DNA of 54,761 nucleotides from Planctomycetota bacterium (lineage in GTDB: Bacteria > Planctomycetota > MHYJ01 > JACPRB01): the NCBI GenBank assembly GCA_016190155.1, contig JACPRB010000082.1, positions 1-54,761 of the forward strand, written 5' to 3'. The translations under genes were made by a program, and so were the position numbers. Shown here piece after piece: positions 1 through 9,860 of this stretch. A model generated the notes under the pieces. That model was not told where the DNA came from. It did not search any database and saw nothing but the letters and a program-made list of their open reading frames with translations. Position 1 is the stretch's first letter. Every line of letters begins with the position of its first letter.

Positions 1-865
1 ATGCCGCGCCTTCCAGGAACGCGTCGATCTGCTCCCGTTCGCGATCCGCCTCATATTGGAGTTGTCCGCCGGGATAGACGTCACGGCGCGCGCAATCCTC
101 GAGCTCCGCCGCGACGGGCGCGTCGGATCCCAGTCTTTCTTGGAGGAAGGCCTCGATTTGCGGACGCATCGACATGAACTCCGCGGCGACCGTCGCCACC
201 GCGCGCACGCGGGCGCCCGCGGCTTTCAGGAGATCGATGCCGCGCATGACTCGTTCATAGGATCCTTCGCGGCGGTGGTTCACTCTGTGCTTGTCGTGGA
301 TCTCCGGGGGTCCGTCCAGGCTCACGACCACTTCGACGTCGTGTCTTCGGAAGAACTCGGCGGACTCAGGTGTGAGGAGCAAGCCGTTCGTGAAGATCCG
401 CTTGTACCATCGGCGGCCGGAGGAAGCGGCCTCGTCGAGGACGGCCTGGACCGTCGTCCATGCCAGCATCGGCTCGCCCCCGAAGAGGCTGAGGTCGAGA
501 TGCCGTTCGCGGGTGAGGCTCAGGAGCGCGCGCACGATCCGCCGGCCCATCTGCGGCGACATGACCGTGGGGCTTGCACGGTAATGACCCTGATCCACGT
601 TGCAGTAGCTGCAGGCCATGTCGCATGCGTGCGCGACGTTGATGACCGCCTGGGCGAAGGGATGTTCTTGCCGGCAGGCGGTGCCCGGCCAATAGCCCAA
701 GCGACCCAGCAAGGACCATTCCCGCTCGATCTCGACGGGAGGAGGGCCGCCTTCGCGCAGAACCCGACGCGCGTCGGCGGAGACCTGGTAGAGGCACGAA
801 GTACCGGCCACCAGCGCGAGGTCATCCATCCAATGCAGCCGGCCGGCGAATTCGTCGAGGTTCAT
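1..865 (-). CDS. radical SAM enzyme, second of a tandem pair; N-terminal part only, the gene runs off the left window edge
   Basis: Absent from the ORF track because it has no in-window stop. My reverse-strand translation from ATG 865..863 reads MNLDEFAGRLHWMDD...VINVAHACDMACSYCNVDQGHY...LSLFGGEPMLAW...VVSLDGPPEIHDKHR. CDMACSYC is the CX3CX2C radical SAM cluster motif. The ATG overlaps the upstream TGA (864..862) as ATGA. Confidence 0.8.
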   Translation of the reverse strand, partial: MNLDEFAGRLHWMDDLALVAGTSCLYQVSADARRVLREGGPPPVEIEREWSLLGRLGYWPGTACRQEHPFAQAVINVAHACDMACSYCNVDQGHYRASPTVMSPQMGRRIVRALLSLTRERHLDLSLFGGEPMLAWTTVQAVLDEAASSGRRWYKRIFTNGLLLTPESAEFFRRHDVEVVVSLDGPPEIHDKHRVNHRREGSYERVMRGIDLLKAAGARVRAVATVAAEFMSMRPQIEAFLQERLGSDAPVAAELEDCARRDVYPGGQLQYEADREREQIDAFLEGAA

Positions 866-2277
866 GTGGAAACCCACTCCGGCACGTTCGGCCGTACGGA
901 CGTCGCGGGAAAGAGGAAGATCGGCTTGAGCCCTGGCGACGACGTTCGCGCCAACTGGCGGAGGCGATAGGCCTGATCCAGCTTCTGCAGGGACGCGGCC
1001 TGCAACGGCTCGTACATCCGGCGGATGTCGGGCCATGTCAGATTCGAGGTGGCCGCCACGGCTTCGTGAATGAACTCCGTGGAGTACGCGCAGAACGCAT
1101 CGCTCGGCTCTCGGCCCGCCGCGAAGATCGAGGGACAGCCTTTGGGACACAAGTCGTGGGCCCAGCATGCCTCGCACTTTTTCGGAAGTGCGTCTCGCTG
1201 CGCCCGCAGGGCCGTCATCTTCTGCGGGTCCAGGCCTGAAAAGACGTCTCCGAGCCGGCGAGAGGGATTCCCCAGGTCGGAGCAATGGCAGTTGTAGATG
1301 AAGCCGTCGATGTCGACGAACGGAAAGCCCAAGCCGGACGGGCATTCGGGCCGAGGAGCCGCAGGGCCCAGGAGAAGGACGCCCATCAGGCGTGCCAGCT
1401 GCGTAGGATACCGCCCATCCCGCAGATCGCGACGAGTGGTTTGGAGGACGACGCTCCATGCTTCGCGCGCCTGAGGACCGGAGGTCCATCCGGATTCGGG
1501 GCCGATCGCCACGTGATTCCGCGGCGTCGCCAGTCGTCGGAGGTAGTCCTGCGCTTCCGTCGTACGTTCCGCGCCTTCGGGGGTCATGATGGCGACAAGG
1601 CCCATGGGGGCTCCGGCCGACAGCAGCGCCTGGATTCCGGAAAGCACCATCCCGTGAGAGCGATCGCCGGACTTGGTCGGGCGCCTGGGGTCGTGCAGGT
1701 CCTCCGGTCCGTCGATCGTCACCTTGGTGTGTACGCCGTGTTCCGCCAGGAATCGGGCGCGAGAGGCATCGATCATCGTGCCGTTGGTCGTCAGATGCAG
1801 CGACCACGTGCATTCGGGATGCTCTCGGGTGGCGCGGACGGCTGCTTCGAGGGCCTTCCAATTCAGCGTCGGTTCGCCGCCGAAAAGATAGAGGGAAAGG
1901 CGCGGGATCGAGCGGTTGCGCACGAGCCAACGAATGCTTTCTACGGCGACCTGTGGGGTCATGAGGCCGGGTTTCCCGCCGTAGAATCCCGTCTGGCCGA
2001 CGCAGCAATACGTGCACGCGAGATTGCAATTCCGGGCCAGGTTCAAGGCGAGACCCTGGAATCCGCCGGGCGTTCGCGGCGGGACATGGAATCCGTAGCC
2101 CAAGCGGTCGAGTACGCGCAGATCGCGTTCCGACGGCTCTTCGGATCGGAGTTCGTAAGCCAGCGGAGTGCCCGGAACGATGCCGTAGCGCCGTTCTTGG
2201 CACGTGAAACTTACGAGGCAGGCCGGGCGCACGCTGGTCTGGCCGCCCGGACGGCCTGGCTGTACTGATCCTTGCAT
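862..2277 (-). CDS. radical SAM/SPASM-domain peptide-maturase-like enzyme, first of a tandem pair
   Basis: Track ORF 862..2391(-). NLARNCNLACTYCCV gives CX3CX2C. The C-terminal KKCEACWAHDLCPKGC matches the SPASM CX2CX5CX3C pattern exactly. Start placed at MQGSV (2277) so it does not overlap the upstream gene ending at 2310. Confidence 0.85.
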   Translation of the reverse strand: MQGSVQPGRPGGQTSVRPACLVSFTCQERRYGIVPGTPLAYELRSEEPSERDLRVLDRLGYGFHVPPRTPGGFQGLALNLARNCNLACTYCCVGQTGFYGGKPGLMTPQVAVESIRWLVRNRSIPRLSLYLFGGEPTLNWKALEAAVRATREHPECTWSLHLTTNGTMIDASRARFLAEHGVHTKVTIDGPEDLHDPRRPTKSGDRSHGMVLSGIQALLSAGAPMGLVAIMTPEGAERTTEAQDYLRRLATPRNHVAIGPESGWTSGPQAREAWSVVLQTTRRDLRDGRYPTQLARLMGVLLLGPAAPRPECPSGLGFPFVDIDGFIYNCHCSDLGNPSRRLGDVFSGLDPQKMTALRAQRDALPKKCEACWAHDLCPKGCPSIFAAGREPSDAFCAYSTEFIHEAVAATSNLTWPDIRRMYEPLQAASLQKLDQAYRLRQLARTSSPGLKPIFLFPATSVRPNVPEWVST

Positions 2278-2309
2278 AACTGAGGAAGATGCTCTCGGCA
2301 GGCGAGCGC

Positions 2310-2792
2310 TCAGATAAGTTCGCAGCCCCCCATGCCGCATCCGACGGGGAAGACGGCGCACTCTTGCACGAAGCCTCCGACCCCCGTGCACCCTTGGACG
2401 ATCAGGTTCTCCGGGAGCAGCTCCCTCAACCGGATCTCCTGCAGGCGCATCGGGGTATAGGGTTTACGGGGCACTTGAGGCGTGACCGGTTTTCCCGCCG
2501 GGTCGTCGCCGAAGCGTACCGCGCCGATCGATGCCAGCTTCTTTACGAACGCCTGAAGCTCCTCGGCGGCCGCGCGCGCGTCCGCGTCGAAGGCGGCGCA
2601 TACGGCGTCCAAGACACCGGGGAGATCGGAGCCGTCGAGGATCTTCCAGACGAAGAGCGCGGTGTCGCCGGTCAGCTCGTAGAGCACGTCGGCCGACGGC
2701 TGGGTCGTAGGGATGAGAAAGACGGATTCGCCGGCGTCTCTGGACTCAAAAGCCTCGGTCTTTCGTATCCCCTGGGGGGCGTGTTGTGACAT
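2310..2792 (-). CDS. PqqD-like (RiPP recognition element-like) protein fused in frame to a 46-residue tail with a Cys/Gly-rich C-terminal end
   Basis: Track ORF 2310..2822(-). The core SVFLIPTTQPSADVLYELTGDTALFVWKILDGSDLPGVLDAVCAAFDADARAAAEELQAFVKKLASIGAV has the PqqD-family pattern. The tail is MRLQEIRLRELLPENLIVQGCTGVGGFVQECAVFPVGCGMGGCELI. ATG at 2792 is preceded by GAGGAA; a GTG at 2822 is an alternative start. Confidence 0.75.
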   Translation of the reverse strand: MSQHAPQGIRKTEAFESRDAGESVFLIPTTQPSADVLYELTGDTALFVWKILDGSDLPGVLDAVCAAFDADARAAAEELQAFVKKLASIGAVRFGDDPAGKPVTPQVPRKPYTPMRLQEIRLRELLPENLIVQGCTGVGGFVQECAVFPVGCGMGGCELI

Positions 2793-2877: not shown

Positions 2878-3627
2878 TCAGTCGATCTCTTTCAATGTTC
2901 CGGCGGCGATCCGTTCCAGCGCGCGCACCCATTGTTGCGAATGTGGATCTTCGTGCGCCCGCAGAGGCGGGAAGGGGCGGATGGGGATGCCGGCGAAGGC
3001 GTCGCACTGGGTCTTCCAGCACTCGCGCCAATCCGAGCACAAGGCGTGGCGTCCATTTTGAAACAGAAAGGACCAGGCGTTCAGATCTTGCTCTCCGATG
3101 AGGAACAGGCCCCGCAGCGGAAGCGGTTCCCTACACAACAAGGGGCTTTGGGCCAGGCAGAAGGTCGGCCGGCTGAACCACGCCGCGGGGGCGCCGTGGC
3201 GGGTCAACAGTCGTACGCTGGAATCGCGAAGGGACATGGGCGTCGGAAACGGATGCGCGCGGCGGTCCTTCACGGAAACCGCGACGGAATCGTCGGACAA
3301 GAGGCGCGCCCCCTTGACGGCCATGAACAACGCGGCCGTTGTCTTGCCGGCCATCGATTGTCCGATAAAGCCGAAGGCGCCCTCCGCGGTGGCCACGGCC
3401 GCCCCGTGGAGAATGAGGTAGTTCGGGTGAAGCCGGGCAGCGACGCGGAGGCGAAACTCGTTGGCCTGGTTCGCCGCGCCTTTCGATTGAAGCACGATTT
3501 CTTCGGCTTCGCCCTCGGGCGCGACGCACCACGAGAAGTCGCGCAGGAGCATCTCGATCGCCTTGTCCGATGCGCGTGGCCGGCAGCGCCGGCCGAAGAA
3601 GTCGAAGACTGGGCCCAGAACCGTCAT
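2878..3627 (-). CDS. HPr kinase/phosphorylase-like P-loop protein (HprK-related kinase)
   Basis: C-terminal 249 aa of track ORF 2878..4254(-). LILHGAAVATAEGAFGFIGQSMAGKTTAAL resembles the HprK C-terminal domain P-loop. ATG 3627..3625 overlaps the upstream TGA (3626..3624) as ATGA. The longer ORF version overlaps the upstream gene and is rejected. Confidence 0.7.
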   Translation of the reverse strand: MTVLGPVFDFFGRRCRPRASDKAIEMLLRDFSWCVAPEGEAEEIVLQSKGAANQANEFRLRVAARLHPNYLILHGAAVATAEGAFGFIGQSMAGKTTAALFMAVKGARLLSDDSVAVSVKDRRAHPFPTPMSLRDSSVRLLTRHGAPAAWFSRPTFCLAQSPLLCREPLPLRGLFLIGEQDLNAWSFLFQNGRHALCSDWRECWKTQCDAFAGIPIRPFPPLRAHEDPHSQQWVRALERIAAGTLKEID

Positions 3628-4532
3628 GTCTGATGCGGATCGATCCACTGAAGCGGCACGAATCCGTTCCTCGCCGGCCGGCCTGCAGGGTGCAAACCGA
3701 GGCTCCGATACATCGCCAGCGGCACGCGTCGATAAACCAGGAATCCGGAACGGATGTGCCGGGCGCCGCGCCGCCTCGCCATATGGAGAGCCGCGGTCAA
3801 CAACAGCCGCGCGATGCCCAGACCTTGAAAGATCGCGCGAACATTCAAGTCCCAGAGTTCGAACGAGCCCGGTTCGCGCTCGATGAGATGGACATGGCCG
3901 GCCGGGTGTTGTCCGATCCAGCCTTGGATCTCGGTGACGCTTGCGGTGCGGACCTGTTCCTGAGCGGTCGCACGCGTGTACGGATGCCCGATCCAGGCGC
4001 ACCGGTCTCCCGTCGAGCGGATGGTCACGTGCGGCCGCAGCCAGGGGGCCACCGACACGGCGTAGAAGCGGCTGTGCAGGAGGATGGTGCACCACATTCG
4101 GAAGAAGTCGCGCACGGCGCGTTCCGCCCGCCATAGCCGTCCCCTGAGTCTGCGCAACCCGGCGAAGCGGGGCGGCGTCGCGAGCCTGTCGCGCATCCAT
4201 GTCCCATCGCGCCGGGTGGCGGCGACGAAGCCGACGATTTCGGACGTCGGGCATGGCGGATCGGGCATGGGGCTGCGGTCTCCTTGCGTGACCCAGTGTA
4301 CGCCGTCTCGCCGGACGACGCGATGCGCGATCATGCTTCCCGGGTCGGCGCCGCGTCGGACGACGATTTCGCCGGGGCGTGGCTCCCGCATCAGGGGCAC
4401 GATCAGCAGGTCGTCTCCCGGCAGCAAGGAAGGGACCATGCTGCCGCCGGCCAGCTTCAGAAGCGTGCCTTGCGCGCGGTCGATCATGGTCGTGCAGCTT
4501 ACCAAGATCCGCTCGTCCGCGGCCAGGGCCAA
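3624..4532 (-). CDS. fusion protein: S26/SipW-like signal-peptidase domain plus C-terminal GNAT acetyltransferase domain
   Basis: GGSMVPSLLPGDDLLIV is the S26 SMxP catalytic-Ser box. IAHRVVRRDGVHWVTQGDRSPMPD is a SipW/ER-type HRV...T(K)GD box. FQGLGIARLLLTAALHMARRRG is GNAT motif A (QxxGxA). The start is TTG at 4532; ATG at 4487 is an alternative. Confidence 0.7.
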   Translation of the reverse strand: MALAADERILVSCTTMIDRAQGTLLKLAGGSMVPSLLPGDDLLIVPLMREPRPGEIVVRRGADPGSMIAHRVVRRDGVHWVTQGDRSPMPDPPCPTSEIVGFVAATRRDGTWMRDRLATPPRFAGLRRLRGRLWRAERAVRDFFRMWCTILLHSRFYAVSVAPWLRPHVTIRSTGDRCAWIGHPYTRATAQEQVRTASVTEIQGWIGQHPAGHVHLIEREPGSFELWDLNVRAIFQGLGIARLLLTAALHMARRRGARHIRSGFLVYRRVPLAMYRSLGLHPAGRPARNGFVPLQWIDPHQT

Positions 4533-4597: not shown

Positions 4598-5251
4598 ATG
4601 GGAAGAGATCCGATCGGATTCACGCCGGCCTCGATGATGGCCCGGCAGCGGTTGGGGCTGCCGCTTGCCGGCCGAATCGTGCTCTACGCCGGCCGGTTTG
4701 CGCCCACGCATCCGTTGGACTTGCTCATGGACATCGCGCCGGCGCTCATGGATCGCGCGCGGCTGCTCCACTTCGTGCTGATCGGGGACGGAGTGACGCG
4801 GCGACGGCTTGAGGCGATCGCCCGTGCGCGCTCGCTGGACGCCGCGGTCATCTTCGCGGGGGACGTCCCGTCCGAGGAGGTGACGGAATACGTGGTCGCA
4901 TCGGACGTGGGGCTTTATCTGTCGGCCTGTTTCGGCAGCCTGCCGCACTCGTTCTCGATTGATGAAGTCTGGCCGTTCCTGAGCGTCGGGCGCGCGATCG
5001 TGGCGGCGAGCGATCTGCCGGACCCGCGGCTCTTCGTGCAGGGGAACAACATCGGCTGCGCCGCGGAGATCACGGGTCGCCGCTCGCGGGACATGGAGAA
5101 TCTGGTGTTGGCGATTTCCTCCATGTTGATGGACGATCGCGCGCGCATGCGCCGGGCGGAGAACGCGCGGCAGTTGGGACGGAGTTTGCAGGCCGACCAC
5201 GCCGTGATGGGCTTCGCGAAGGCCTCGATGAGGCGCGCGGCGGTGCTGTAG
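4598..5251 (+). CDS. glycosyltransferase family 1 (GT4-like), C-terminal Rossmann domain only; apparently N-terminally truncated
   Basis: RIVLYAGRFAPTHPLDLLMDIAP...FVLIGDGVTRRRLEAIA...VIFAGDVPSEEVTEYVVASDVGLYLS...GRAIVAASD fits the GT1 C-terminal half. There is no room for an N-terminal domain because the divergent gene ends at 4532. GGAGAGAGGGGA lies upstream of the ATG. Confidence 0.6.
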   Translation: MGRDPIGFTPASMMARQRLGLPLAGRIVLYAGRFAPTHPLDLLMDIAPALMDRARLLHFVLIGDGVTRRRLEAIARARSLDAAVIFAGDVPSEEVTEYVVASDVGLYLSACFGSLPHSFSIDEVWPFLSVGRAIVAASDLPDPRLFVQGNNIGCAAEITGRRSRDMENLVLAISSMLMDDRARMRRAENARQLGRSLQADHAVMGFAKASMRRAAVL

Positions 5252-7722: not shown

Positions 7723-8688
7723 TTATCGGCGTGGGGCGGGCAACACTTGAGTCGCCAGCGCGCGAACGGCGCGTTTGAGCGCGGCGACGGGGTGACGCAT
7801 CGGATCCGGATGGTGCGCGATCATCTCCTCGACGGGCACGCCCGGGTCGATCATGCGGCGTCCGCAGACGATCGCCACGGGCGCGGGCGAGACGCGCAGC
7901 ACCTCGCCGACGATCTTGCCCGCCAGCGAGGTCTCGTCAAGACAGCCTTCGCCGGTGATGACGAGGTCCGCCCCGCGGGCGCGCGGCCGGAAGCGGACGA
8001 GGCGCAGGATGGCGGGCGCGCCTGGGACGAGTCGGGCGCCGATGGACGCCAGCCCGCCCGCCAGTCCCCCGGCGGCTCCGGCCCCCGCCATCCGCCACAC
8101 CCGACGGGGCAGCGTTCGCATGCGCGCGTCGAGCTCGGGCATCATCTCGGGCGTCGCGCCCTTTTGGGGTCCGAAGATCCTCGGCGCGTCGAGCAGCCGC
8201 GTCTGGACGTCGCACAGCACCGTGACGTCGCGCGCGTGGTCGAGCACGTCGAGGGCGCCGCGGCCGGCGTCGACGGTGGCGCTGCCGCCCGCGCCCACGA
8301 GGATCCGTCGGGCGCCCGCGCGGCGTGCCGCGAGGATCAACTCGCCGGTCCCGCGCGTCGAGGCGCGCAGCGGATCGCGCTTCTGGGGAGGGACGAGGCG
8401 CAGGCCGCAGGCGTCGGCCATCTCGATGACGGCGGTGCGTCCGGCGAGGAGGAGACGCGCCCACACGGGTTGGCCGAGGGGACCCGTGACGCGGCGGCGA
8501 AGCATGCGCCCTCCCAGGGCGGCGTGGAGGCAATCGAGCGTGCCGTCGCCGCCGTCGGCGACGGGGATGATGATGACGCGGTGAGGCCGAAGGGCCGCGG
8601 CGATGGCCCGGGCGGCTTTCGCTGGGGTGAGCGTTTCCTTGAAGGCGGTCGGTGCCGCGACGACGGTGATCAGTTCTTGCTGAGCCAT
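7723..8688 (-). CDS. glycerate kinase family protein
   Basis: C-terminal 321 aa of fused track ORF 7723..9843(-). VADGGDGT, GAGGSATVDAGRG, VLCDVQ, GPQKGA, GAGAAGGLAGGL and ADLVITGEGCLDETSLAGK are glycerate kinase family signatures. ATG at 8688. Confidence 0.85.
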   Translation of the reverse strand: MAQQELITVVAAPTAFKETLTPAKAARAIAAALRPHRVIIIPVADGGDGTLDCLHAALGGRMLRRRVTGPLGQPVWARLLLAGRTAVIEMADACGLRLVPPQKRDPLRASTRGTGELILAARRAGARRILVGAGGSATVDAGRGALDVLDHARDVTVLCDVQTRLLDAPRIFGPQKGATPEMMPELDARMRTLPRRVWRMAGAGAAGGLAGGLASIGARLVPGAPAILRLVRFRPRARGADLVITGEGCLDETSLAGKIVGEVLRVSPAPVAIVCGRRMIDPGVPVEEMIAHHPDPMRHPVAALKRAVRALATQVLPAPRR

Positions 8689-9860
8689 TCCTGCCACAGG
8701 GTCCTGACGGTGGCGCGGTTGTCTTCGCGCGGCATCGGCGTGGAATGGCCCGTGAGATGTTGGAGGGCGGCCGTCGCGGCGCGACTGATTCCGAGGTCCT
8801 CGTGCATGATGTACTCGACCAGCTTCGGATAGGCGTCGCGACCCATCCGCTTGAGCATCTCCATGGCCTGGCCTTCCGGCCGGGTCGGTTCGTCGTACCC
8901 GCCCCCGGGGCGCAGATCCTGCATCAATCTCTCCCAATCGACGTTCTTCGGATCGATGGGGGCGTGGACCACTTTGAGGGGGCCCAGCTTGTCGCGATTC
9001 TTCGGATACCAGATGAACGACCAGAACTCGAACTCCGAGGCGCGGTAGCGCGCGGAATTGACCAGGGCCAAGTTCACCGGATTGCGTTGCGTTTCCTCGT
9101 TGCGGAGCTCCTTCTCCTCGCAGAACAGGTGCATCGCGTCGAACGCGGAGCGCGCGAGCGTCTCGTCGTCGCCGGCGAGGAGATTGATGACCGGTGCCAG
9201 GTAGCGTTCGGCCTTGGCGACGATGGCTCGATGGTCGCGCTTGCGAAGGAGGTCTTCGGCTTCCTTGGCGACGGCGGGTTCGACGGCGATCGGCTTGGCT
9301 TCGGGATCGACGAGTCGAGTCGCGCCGGGCTCCCACTGAGCGGGCGCTTCGTAGGTGCCGGCCTCCGTCTTCCGAAGGGAAGGGGGTTTCTTGTCGGCGG
9401 GCTTTGCGGGTTCCTCGGGCGTCTCGGGTTCGGGAGGAGGCGCGGTTACGCGCGCCGATCGGCCCGAGGTCGCCGGCTCGGTCTTCCGATCGTTCTTCGG
9501 GGATTGGGAGAAGTCGGAGATCAGGAAGATCATCACGCCGAAGATCGTCACGGCCCCGGCGACCATGACGATGACCAGGGGCGTCGTGTTGGAGCGCCGT
9601 CGGGCGCGGCGTGCCGTGCTGTGGCCGCCGCGGCTGGTCGGTTTGGCCGTGGCCATCTTGTGGAAGATAGGGGTTGCGTGGCGCATCGGGTCGGGCTTGC
9701 CTTCGGGGACCGCGGCCGCCTTGACCGGCACGCGTTCCGTTTCGCCCGTCGGGACGCGCATCGAGACGCCGCATTGGGGGCACGGGATGATCGCGCCTTT
9801 CTCGAGCGTTCCGGCGTCCAAGGAGAACCGGCACCGCGGACACTTGATCTGTTTGGCCAT
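8670..9860 (-). CDS. membrane-anchored Zn-ribbon protein with HEAT-like C-terminal domain (hypothetical)
   Basis: N-terminal CPRC...CPQC zinc ribbon, one TM helix (TPLVIVMVAGAVTIFGVMIFLI), a Pro/Glu-rich linker, then a helical-repeat C-terminus. Confidence 0.65.
   Translation of the reverse strand: MAKQIKCPRCRFSLDAGTLEKGAIIPCPQCGVSMRVPTGETERVPVKAAAVPEGKPDPMRHATPIFHKMATAKPTSRGGHSTARRARRRSNTTPLVIVMVAGAVTIFGVMIFLISDFSQSPKNDRKTEPATSGRSARVTAPPPEPETPEEPAKPADKKPPSLRKTEAGTYEAPAQWEPGATRLVDPEAKPIAVEPAVAKEAEDLLRKRDHRAIVAKAERYLAPVINLLAGDDETLARSAFDAMHLFCEEKELRNEETQRNPVNLALVNSARYRASEFEFWSFIWYPKNRDKLGPLKVVHAPIDPKNVDWERLMQDLRPGGGYDEPTRPEGQAMEMLKRMGRDAYPKLVEYIMHEDLGISRAATAALQHLTGHSTPMPREDNRATVRTLWQEWLSKN

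Follow-up and report, generated by a model that had tools for sequence, protein, structure and literature searches.

Organization of the PqqD-tail protein

The window analysed here is an entire contig of 54,761 bp (NCBI GenBank assembly GCA_016190155.1, JACPRB010000082.1) from a metagenome-assembled genome (MAG) of a Planctomycetota bacterium. It carries an operon of five genes, every one on the minus strand, the middle one of which encodes the small protein MBI2930871.1. This protein joins a PqqD-type recognition element for peptides that are made by the ribosome and modified after translation (RiPP recognition element, RRE) to a C-terminal tail rich in Cys and Gly, a layout which suggests a peptide precursor fused to its own recognition element. 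The protein and its parts were delimited as follows:

2310-2792, minus strand: PqqD-tail protein MBI2930871.1, 160 amino acids (aa), made of RRE, Pro-rich linker and tail
2508..2792, minus strand: PqqD-type RRE, fold residues ~8-95 of 160 (from PF05402, AlphaFold2 and Foldseek)
2463..2507, minus strand: Pro-rich linker, residues 96-110, GDDPAGKPVTPQVPR (read from the sequence)
2427..2462, minus strand: leader-like recognition segment, residues 111-122, PYTPMRLQEIRL, containing the ATG at 2450 (Met115)
2391..2426, minus strand: spacer between recognition segment and core, residues 123-134, RELLPENLIVQG (read from the sequence)
2310..2390, minus strand: Cys/Gly-rich putative core, residues 135-160, CTGVGGFVQECAVFPVGCGMGGCELI, plus the stop codon; Cys spacing C-x9-C-x6-C-x4-C

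A single open frame on the minus strand runs from 2822, or from the Met at 2792, to 2310, with a TGA stop codon at 2312-2310. The NCBI annotation places the start of MBI2930871.1 at Met 2792 and assigns it to a Planctomycetes MAG under the name 'PqqD family peptide modification chaperone'. The Pfam model PqqD (PF05402) matched residues 53-101 of the 170-aa frame with 30.5 bits, above the gathering score of 23.4, and on sequence grounds the domain is a true PqqD-type RRE. The PqqD-like core is followed by GDDPAGKPVTPQVPRKPYTP, with six Pro in 20 residues, and then by the 46 residues of MRLQEIRLRELLPENLIVQGCTGVGGFVQECAVFPVGCGMGGCELI. A preliminary description of the locus had reported a tail of 46 residues fused in frame to the PqqD-like domain, and the continuous frame bears this out. 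Its counts had to be corrected. The last 26 residues hold four Cys instead of five, the fifth Cys of the protein being located in the PqqD domain outside of the tail, and the spacing is C-x9-C-x6-C-x4-C rather than C-x11-C-x7-C-x4-C. The putative core thus comprises Cys135, Cys145, Cys152 and Cys157 and has CELI as its C-terminal end. Eight Gly are present in the 46-residue tail, seven of them within the final 26 residues.

The guanine-plus-cytosine (GC) content of the tail at the three codon positions was 0.66/0.41/0.87. As this equals the signature of the adjoining genes, the tail is coding in the PqqD frame. Two open reading frames (ORFs) on the opposite strand, 2289-2789 (+) and 2332-2460 (+), showed the wrong codon-position GC and were rejected as shadow frames. 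Cys makes up 1.2% of the residues in the likely coding ORFs of the window, which gives a probability of approximately 2.4e-4 per position for at least four Cys in 26 residues; a comparably Cys-dense stretch was found in only 4 of the 41 likely coding ORFs. The spacer (residues 123-134) is the likely region of proteolytic release.

Homologues with the same layout

Direct homologues of the window protein were found neither by word-indexed search, which returned the protein itself only, nor by exact contig look-up, nor by a metagenome scan. An exhaustive phmmer search of 1.84 billion representatives delivered 22 weak matches, mostly PqqD proteins of ~95 aa. Two of these matches (P0024 and P0041) are composed of a PqqD domain, a linker and a Cys-rich tail, and their alignments with the window protein extend through the linker into the tail. 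A profile built from the three sequences retrieved 20 further proteins of 125-167 aa, all of them tailed. The conservation of the tail in homologues, or its occasional encoding as a separate ORF, had been put forward earlier as a check, and both were observed: the tail is kept in 22/22 homologues, which form two subfamilies, and a separate ORF of 46-65 aa is present in ~26/30 genomes of subfamily 1 (see below). Three short PqqD matches (P0023, P0028 and P0030) lie on contigs of ~1 kb or less, where only an adjoining S24-like peptidase or radical S-adenosylmethionine (SAM) enzyme fragment was seen.

Both subfamilies share the RRE, a linker of variable sequence, a Y-x-P-P-x-(L/V) motif and a Cys tail in one ORF. 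The tail reads ...PYEPPALTRVPLDARCAVLGFCKQAGTGAGPALPGCRDPLFSPCLSQGS in subfamily 1 and ...YEPPAVAETQxMEVVAALCSSLREGAGGG(KPKPP)GTCRTLGACQKPFE in subfamily 2. Tyr112 and Pro114 are invariant in 22/22 fused homologues, at a total identity to the window protein of 21-31%. Mean pairwise identity within subfamily 1 was 95% for the tail, 70% for the RRE and 36% for the linker; the corresponding values for subfamily 2 were 70%, 59% and 42%. Each Cys column of the tail is 100% Cys within its subfamily. Such a ranking, with the tail more conserved than the RRE and the RRE more than the linker, is characteristic at the sequence level of two functional modules connected by a spacer. A pattern of the form Y-x-(K/P)-P-x-hydrophobic-x-x-hydrophobic-x-L is also present in stand-alone peptides, and the putative core of the window protein matches in position the Cys cores of both the fused and the stand-alone homologues.

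Scanning of genome contigs with the subfamily-2 profile gave no confirmed locus, and a metagenome scan with subfamily 2 yielded one partial locus. At four loci (L004 9896-10378, L009 9896-10381, L010 and L011), gene-calling programs place the start of the PqqD-tail gene at MAIYRLN, which gives products of 125-126 aa. The true start is MQAMNRVF..., for a protein of ~161 aa, and overlaps the end of an upstream giant gene with a C25 domain. Because of this overlap, database entries of that PqqD-tail subfamily are often truncated at the N-terminus.

Fused and split arrangements in subfamily 1

The subfamily-1 profile was used to scan one genome per species and identified 30 loci, mostly in MAGs of Desulfobacterales, with one in Phycisphaerae. 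The fusion was present in three of them (L012-L014). In ~26 of the 30, the PqqD ORF ends at ~100 residues, and what corresponds to the tail is encoded in the same cluster by a gene of its own (46-65 aa), mostly directly downstream of PqqD and sometimes elsewhere in the cluster. The 26 split peptides follow the consensus M..KKxYEKPxVTRIxLDAxCAVLGFCK..GP..C..C..GS, in which the four Cys and the C-terminal Gly-Ser are invariant, and they begin with a basic leader similar to that of PqqA and lasso precursors. The peptide family was unannotated (L012-L041; e.g. L015 3569-3751 and L018 5744-5926) and is encoded beside genes for PqqD, ScmC/HprK-like and NTP_transf_5 proteins. At several split loci (L015-L021; PqqD stop e.g. 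at L015 3566-3568), the peptide is in the frame of PqqD with one stop codon between them, so that one substitution, or read-through of the stop codon, would give the fused form.

A third type of split arrangement adjoins P0025, which is among the best PqqD matches to the window protein (36% identity). The gene order there is PqqD, radical SAM/SPASM enzyme, 52-aa peptide and ScmC. The peptide, MSKKAYTKPTIERVELKPEEAALTACKVEHTQGWGGVTHCRTGQSPCFERTS, follows the pattern MSKKAYTKPTIERVELKPEEAALTACKVEH...C...C...S, and its stretch YTKPTIERVEL resembles YTPMRLQEIRL of the window protein. No peptide of the split family, nor the window tail, matched any Pfam or NCBIfam model, in the case of the window tail even at E <= 10.

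Predicted structure of the window protein

A model of the window protein was built with AlphaFold2 (AF2) on the family alignment and reached a mean predicted local distance difference test score (pLDDT) of 79.5; the model was available as pLDDT values and DSSP assignments only. The RRE was predicted to consist of three strands (15-19, 23-28 and 36-41) and three helices (43-52, 57-67 and 72-88), with pLDDT >90 over most of the domain. The best Foldseek matches in the PDB, at a probability of 1.00, were the complexes of the lasso RRE TbiB1 with its leader (5V1V/5V1U; TM score 0.87 on the target) and 6JX3, that is, lasso RREs which were solved with YxxPxL leaders. A recognition sequence of the form W/Y/L-x-x-P/L/I is reported to be common to the RREs of PqqD, lasso and StsC systems (PMC12710340).

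In the window protein, residues 111-120 displayed a pLDDT of 96, and a strand was assigned by DSSP at 116-121, within the stretch 111-121 (YTPMRLQEIR). Since this strand appears in a model of the monomer, its pairing would take place within the chain, and the model fits an arrangement in which the leader-like segment lies on its own RRE (cis docking). Along the spacer the pLDDT drops from 69 to ~40, and the Cys core (129-160), at ~40, is predicted to be disordered.

The operon and the gene context of the related systems

Four further genes make up the operon of the window:

3624..4532, minus strand: operon gene 1, fusion of an S24/S26B-type (Ser/His) peptidase (aa ~7-105) and a GNAT acetyltransferase (aa ~203-279)
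2878..3627, minus strand: HprK-related/ScmC-like P-loop protein, 249 aa from the ATG at 3627 (start read from the sequence)
862..2277, minus strand: radical SAM/SPASM enzyme D, start uncertain, 456 aa in the NCBI model, with CxxxCxxC and a full 7-Cys SPASM motif
1..865, minus strand: radical SAM enzyme E, truncated by the end of the contig to its N-terminal 288 aa; its start codon and the stop codon of D overlap as ATGA

The start and stop codons of peptidase-GNAT and HprK-like genes (3624-3627) and those of enzymes D and E (862-865) overlap as ATGA, which suggests translational coupling at these two junctions; the other gaps of the operon measure 32-77 nt and 55-85 nt. With gaps this short and two overlaps, there is no space in the operon for a further small gene, in agreement with the preliminary description, which had found no separate precursor ORF there.

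The first protein of the operon matched Pfam Peptidase_S24 and Acetyltransf_1 and, with 35.8 bits and under the cut-off, the NCBIfam model of archaeal-type signal peptidase I. Its GxSMxP, AHR and GD motifs (Ser/His S26B-type) are invariant between the window peptidase and those of the related systems. It is a candidate leader peptidase, possibly coupled to acetylation. The HprK-like protein matched NCBIfam HprK_rel_A (44 bits, cut-off 200) and also HprK_rel_B, and Pfam Hpr_kinase_C weakly; the Walker A G-K, one His and an SDD motif are invariant between it and the ScmC-like proteins of related loci. Enzyme D matched Pfam Radical_SAM, its SPASM cysteines being read from the sequence. The best NCBIfam matches of the radical SAM enzymes of the window were PapB, nif11, SCIFF and QhpD maturases, all far under the cut-offs (PapB 144.7 vs 340; SCIFF maturase 99 vs 425; QhpD 95.4 vs 453). 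The nearest solved relative of enzyme D is the SCIFF maturase CteB (5WGG), and the nearest database relative is QhpD with 33% identity. Both window enzymes carry N-terminal extensions of ~75 residues.

A radical SAM/SPASM enzyme and a ScmC/HprK-like protein are encoded in all of the related systems, many of which also have an S24/S26 peptidase; all three are present in the window. Loci of subfamily 1 have the order [ABC transporter]-rSAM/SPASM-S24 peptidase-giant C25 protein-PqqD(-peptide)-ScmC-NTP_transf_5 (rSAM, radical SAM), and in those of subfamily 2 the PqqD-tail gene is followed by rSAM/SPASM and then ScmC. The radical SAM enzymes of the fused and split families are MftC/PqqE/NirJ-like, with ~350-390 aa.

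The giant protein measures 2,100-3,300 aa, contains a domain of the Peptidase_C25 (gingipain-like) type and is encoded immediately upstream of PqqD in most Desulfobacterales loci (L004 3412-9987; L009 3592-9987; upstream of PqqD in L012-L038). It may act as a second protease in processing or be itself a target. The neighbours of the closest radical SAM relatives, a QhpD operon and an unrelated cluster of a Cys-rich protein, were uninformative for the tail. Directly upstream of one distant radical SAM relative (P0004), and beside a Trp halogenase gene, a Cys-rich protein of 115 aa is encoded (L003 1213-1560), which may be another uncharacterised radical SAM substrate.

A probable self-contained precursor and the alternatives to it

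The tail is a real feature with the corrected counts, and the sequence comparisons are best explained by a natural fusion of RRE and precursor, which would also expose an uncharacterised and fairly widespread precursor family. We favour, with a probability of roughly 0.6, the reading that MBI2930871.1 is a self-contained RiPP precursor, with RRE, flexible linker, recognition segment PYTPMRLQEIRL and Cys/Gly core in one chain. The domain layout, its recurrence in two other subfamilies, the fused/split polymorphism of subfamily 1 and the shared gene set are observed; the strand and the disordered core are predicted by the AF2 model. The recognition segment would fold back and bind its own RRE as an added beta-strand, in an intramolecular form of leader recognition, and in this way the disordered core would be offered to both of the radical SAM/SPASM enzymes whose genes lie downstream. 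These enzymes would most likely install Cys-derived cross-links, thioether-type by analogy. The S24/S26-type peptidase-GNAT protein would then release the core and possibly acetylate it; release by this protein is plausible, and peptidases of the S24/S26 type with intact catalytic motifs are found again in the related systems. The HprK-like protein would in related peptides ending with Gly-Ser probably phosphorylate the C-terminal Ser. The earlier proposal of a substrate tethered to its own recognition element is supported by the distant homologues, which are tailed and have invariant Cys within each subfamily, and by the separate small ORFs of subfamily 1, while for the window protein the support is architectural and comparative rather than direct.

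Several observations weigh against this interpretation. In all of the collections searched the window protein stands as a singleton, with no relative close enough for a comparison of its Cys pattern. A hidden Markov model (HMM) of the split peptides does not retrieve the window tail, an HMM of the 17-residue motif ranks the window site 15th in the window (E=23), and phmmer with the tail only gave E ~0.1, no better than a decoy. As all three tail searches were non-significant, we do not claim that window tail and peptide family are homologous in sequence. Position 4 of the motif is Met in the window protein and Pro in all the homologues. The radical SAM enzymes of the window are SCIFF/PapB/QhpD-like with ~450 aa, as opposed to the MftC/PqqE-like enzymes of ~350-390 aa in the fused and split families, and owing to these different clades the systems are not simply orthologous. 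Moreover, the contig stops inside enzyme E, which leaves room for a separate precursor downstream. Cis docking is read from pLDDT and DSSP only, and a second AF2 model, of subfamily 2, was with a pLDDT of 50 too poor to confirm it. Modification of any member of the family is, finally, proposed by analogy.

An alternative that we regard as unlikely takes the tail as a functional extension of the chaperone, either a metal or Fe-S binding site or an auto-inhibitory or docking strand in the groove of the RRE, with the true precursor located elsewhere, for example past the contig end. The cut within enzyme E allows for this, four Cys in 26 residues are typical of metal sites too, and other ORFs of the window have such stretches. 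The tails are also more conserved than is usual for RiPP cores, and the ~75-residue N-terminal extensions of the radical SAM enzymes could recognise another substrate. On the other hand, the tail of subfamily 1 is mostly a free peptide of 46-65 aa with a PqqA/lasso-like basic leader, which is the normal form of a RiPP precursor, and the Cys segment is disordered in the AF2 model. In addition, no other conserved small Cys-rich gene was found in 30+ related loci; the check consisted of scanning nine loci for a motif and listing the ORFs of L005, the neighbour map of related loci annotating only ORFs of at least 45 aa that match known reference proteins.

Lower in probability still is a peptide made separately from an internal start and acting in trans, with the full-length fusion as a by-product. 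The internal ATG noticed in the preliminary description does exist, at 2450-2448, and an in-frame GTG at 2468 within the linker, six codons ahead of Tyr112, is another conceivable start; initiation at the GTG would yield (M)PRKPYTPMRLQEIRL..., an N-terminus similar to those of the stand-alone peptides. Translation from the ATG is not supported, however. Met115 stands inside the recognition motif at a position where all 22 homologues have Pro, so that the ATG is not conserved as a start, and any peptide initiated from it would lose the invariant Tyr. Between the RRE and the Cys core, the fusions of subfamily 1 are devoid of Met and most of those of subfamily 2 have only a non-equivalent one. 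As read from the sequence, neither the ATG nor the GTG has a suitably spaced Shine-Dalgarno-like sequence, and the persistence of fused ORFs in >20 distinct sequences speaks for a use of the fusion itself. That the fusion is an artefact, in which a normal PqqD gene and a separate precursor gene were joined by the loss of the intervening stop codon through a sequencing or assembly error in the MAG contig, appears very improbable. It is true that the protein is known from one contig of one MAG, with no second copy anywhere searched, and that at several split loci, where both genes share the frame, a single substitution would fuse them. Against an artefact speak the continuous frame with its uniform coding signature, the absence from the linker of any candidate ATG at which a separate gene could begin ahead of the motif, and genuine fusions of the same layout in many independent assemblies.

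A wider proposal can also be put forward, though only tentatively. Self-recognising RiPP precursors would exist in nature, the RRE being a part of the leader that is spent once per product, and the fused/split polymorphism would identify the unassigned precursor of a family of PqqD-rSAM/SPASM-ScmC (HprK-like) cassettes that is widespread in Desulfobacterota, Planctomycetota and metagenomes. The strong conservation of the Cys cores would suggest a conserved cellular role, as a cofactor, signal or metal binder, and not a variable antibiotic.

Comparison with known systems

Among the handles by which ribosomal peptide natural products can be traced irrespective of their class, RRE domains are the main one. 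Discrete RREs of the PqqD type partner with radical SAM/SPASM enzymes, e.g. PqqE and StsB, and the peptide PqqA begins with MWKKPAFIDLRL. The window RRE has the same fold as those of PqqD/PqqA, lasso B1 (TbiB1, FusE) and StsC/StsA and matches PF05402, and recognition in these systems involves an aromatic residue, two further residues, Pro or a hydrophobic residue, and then a beta-strand (PMC12710340). In contrast to the discrete RREs, the window RRE and its presumed peptide form one polypeptide, so that the chaperone would serve for one product only and turn into a part of the leader. A lasso system was rejected, the Asn-synthetase-like cyclase and the transglutaminase-like B2 peptidase being absent among the five operon proteins. 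Likewise, no PQQ gene was recognised among these five proteins by NCBIfam and Pfam matches.

The order HprK-like, PqqD-like and two radical SAM/SPASM enzymes mirrors ScmC-D-E-F of the SynChlorMet cassette (NCBIfam ScmC/D/E/F), for which no precursor is known according to the NCBIfam text. Membership of this cassette was rejected, as TIGR04248-TIGR04251 gave no match for the PqqD and HprK-like proteins of the window and were not among the top 25 for either radical SAM enzyme. Furthermore, the ScmD model has 84 residues and hence no tail, and the window enzymes are SCIFF/PapB/QhpD-like instead of PqqE-like. The nearest enzyme relatives of D and E belong to the SCIFF/CteB, ranthipeptide PapB and QhpD/QhpC systems, whose substrates are Cys-rich. 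These systems differ from the window in that the window enzymes score far under the family cut-offs, that neither SCIFF models nor those of other RiPP peptides match the window tail, and that their enzymes usually contain an RRE themselves and have free peptides, or a protein subunit (QhpC), as substrates.

A substrate and its partner in one chain have precedents in the natural borosins (OphMA-type) and in the engineered ConFusion (leader-enzyme) and PlpY-PlpA fusions (PMC8429565; PMC11414181). The partner fused to the borosin core, however, is a catalytic methyltransferase and not an RRE, and ConFusion and PlpY-PlpA are man-made constructs. The RRE reviews searched describe RREs as free proteins or fused to enzymes only, and a fusion of RRE and precursor was not found in them. 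A literature search for SynChlorMet/Scm names, for CAVLGFC and for PF14907 with PqqD brought up nothing relevant.

HPr-kinase homologues phosphorylate the C-terminal Ser of lasso precursors, after which a nucleotidyltransferase adds a hexose, as in paeninodin and pseudomycoidin (PMC8498205). The loci of subfamily 1 resemble these in pairing ScmC/HprK-like and NTP_transf_5 proteins with peptides which all end with Gly-Ser; by analogy, this pair suggests phosphorylation and glycosylation of the C-terminal Ser in these peptides. The window, on the contrary, has no NTP_transf_5, and since its tail ends with CELI, lasso-type phosphorylation of Ser does not explain it.

In a recent survey, 21% of the PF05402 proteins exceeded a discrete RRE in length while lacking any other annotation (PMC12710340). 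If the fusion reading is true, genome miners should search over-long PqqD proteins for the substrate, and the window protein would be a ready natural model for cis versus trans leader recognition. The fused and split pairs would, in the same case, point to the precursor of the recurrent PqqD/rSAM/HprK-like cassette and make the system testable in vitro.

Other observations in the window

An ORF at 4598-5251 (+), which diverges from the operon, looks like the C-terminal half of a group-1 glycosyltransferase with the N-terminal half missing and may, from its sequence, be a gene fragment. The scan for Cys density also brought up an ORF of 396 aa at 8670-9860 (-). It has an N-terminal four-Cys motif similar to a zinc ribbon (KCPRC...CPQC), is otherwise Pro/Ala-rich and contains a predicted membrane segment.

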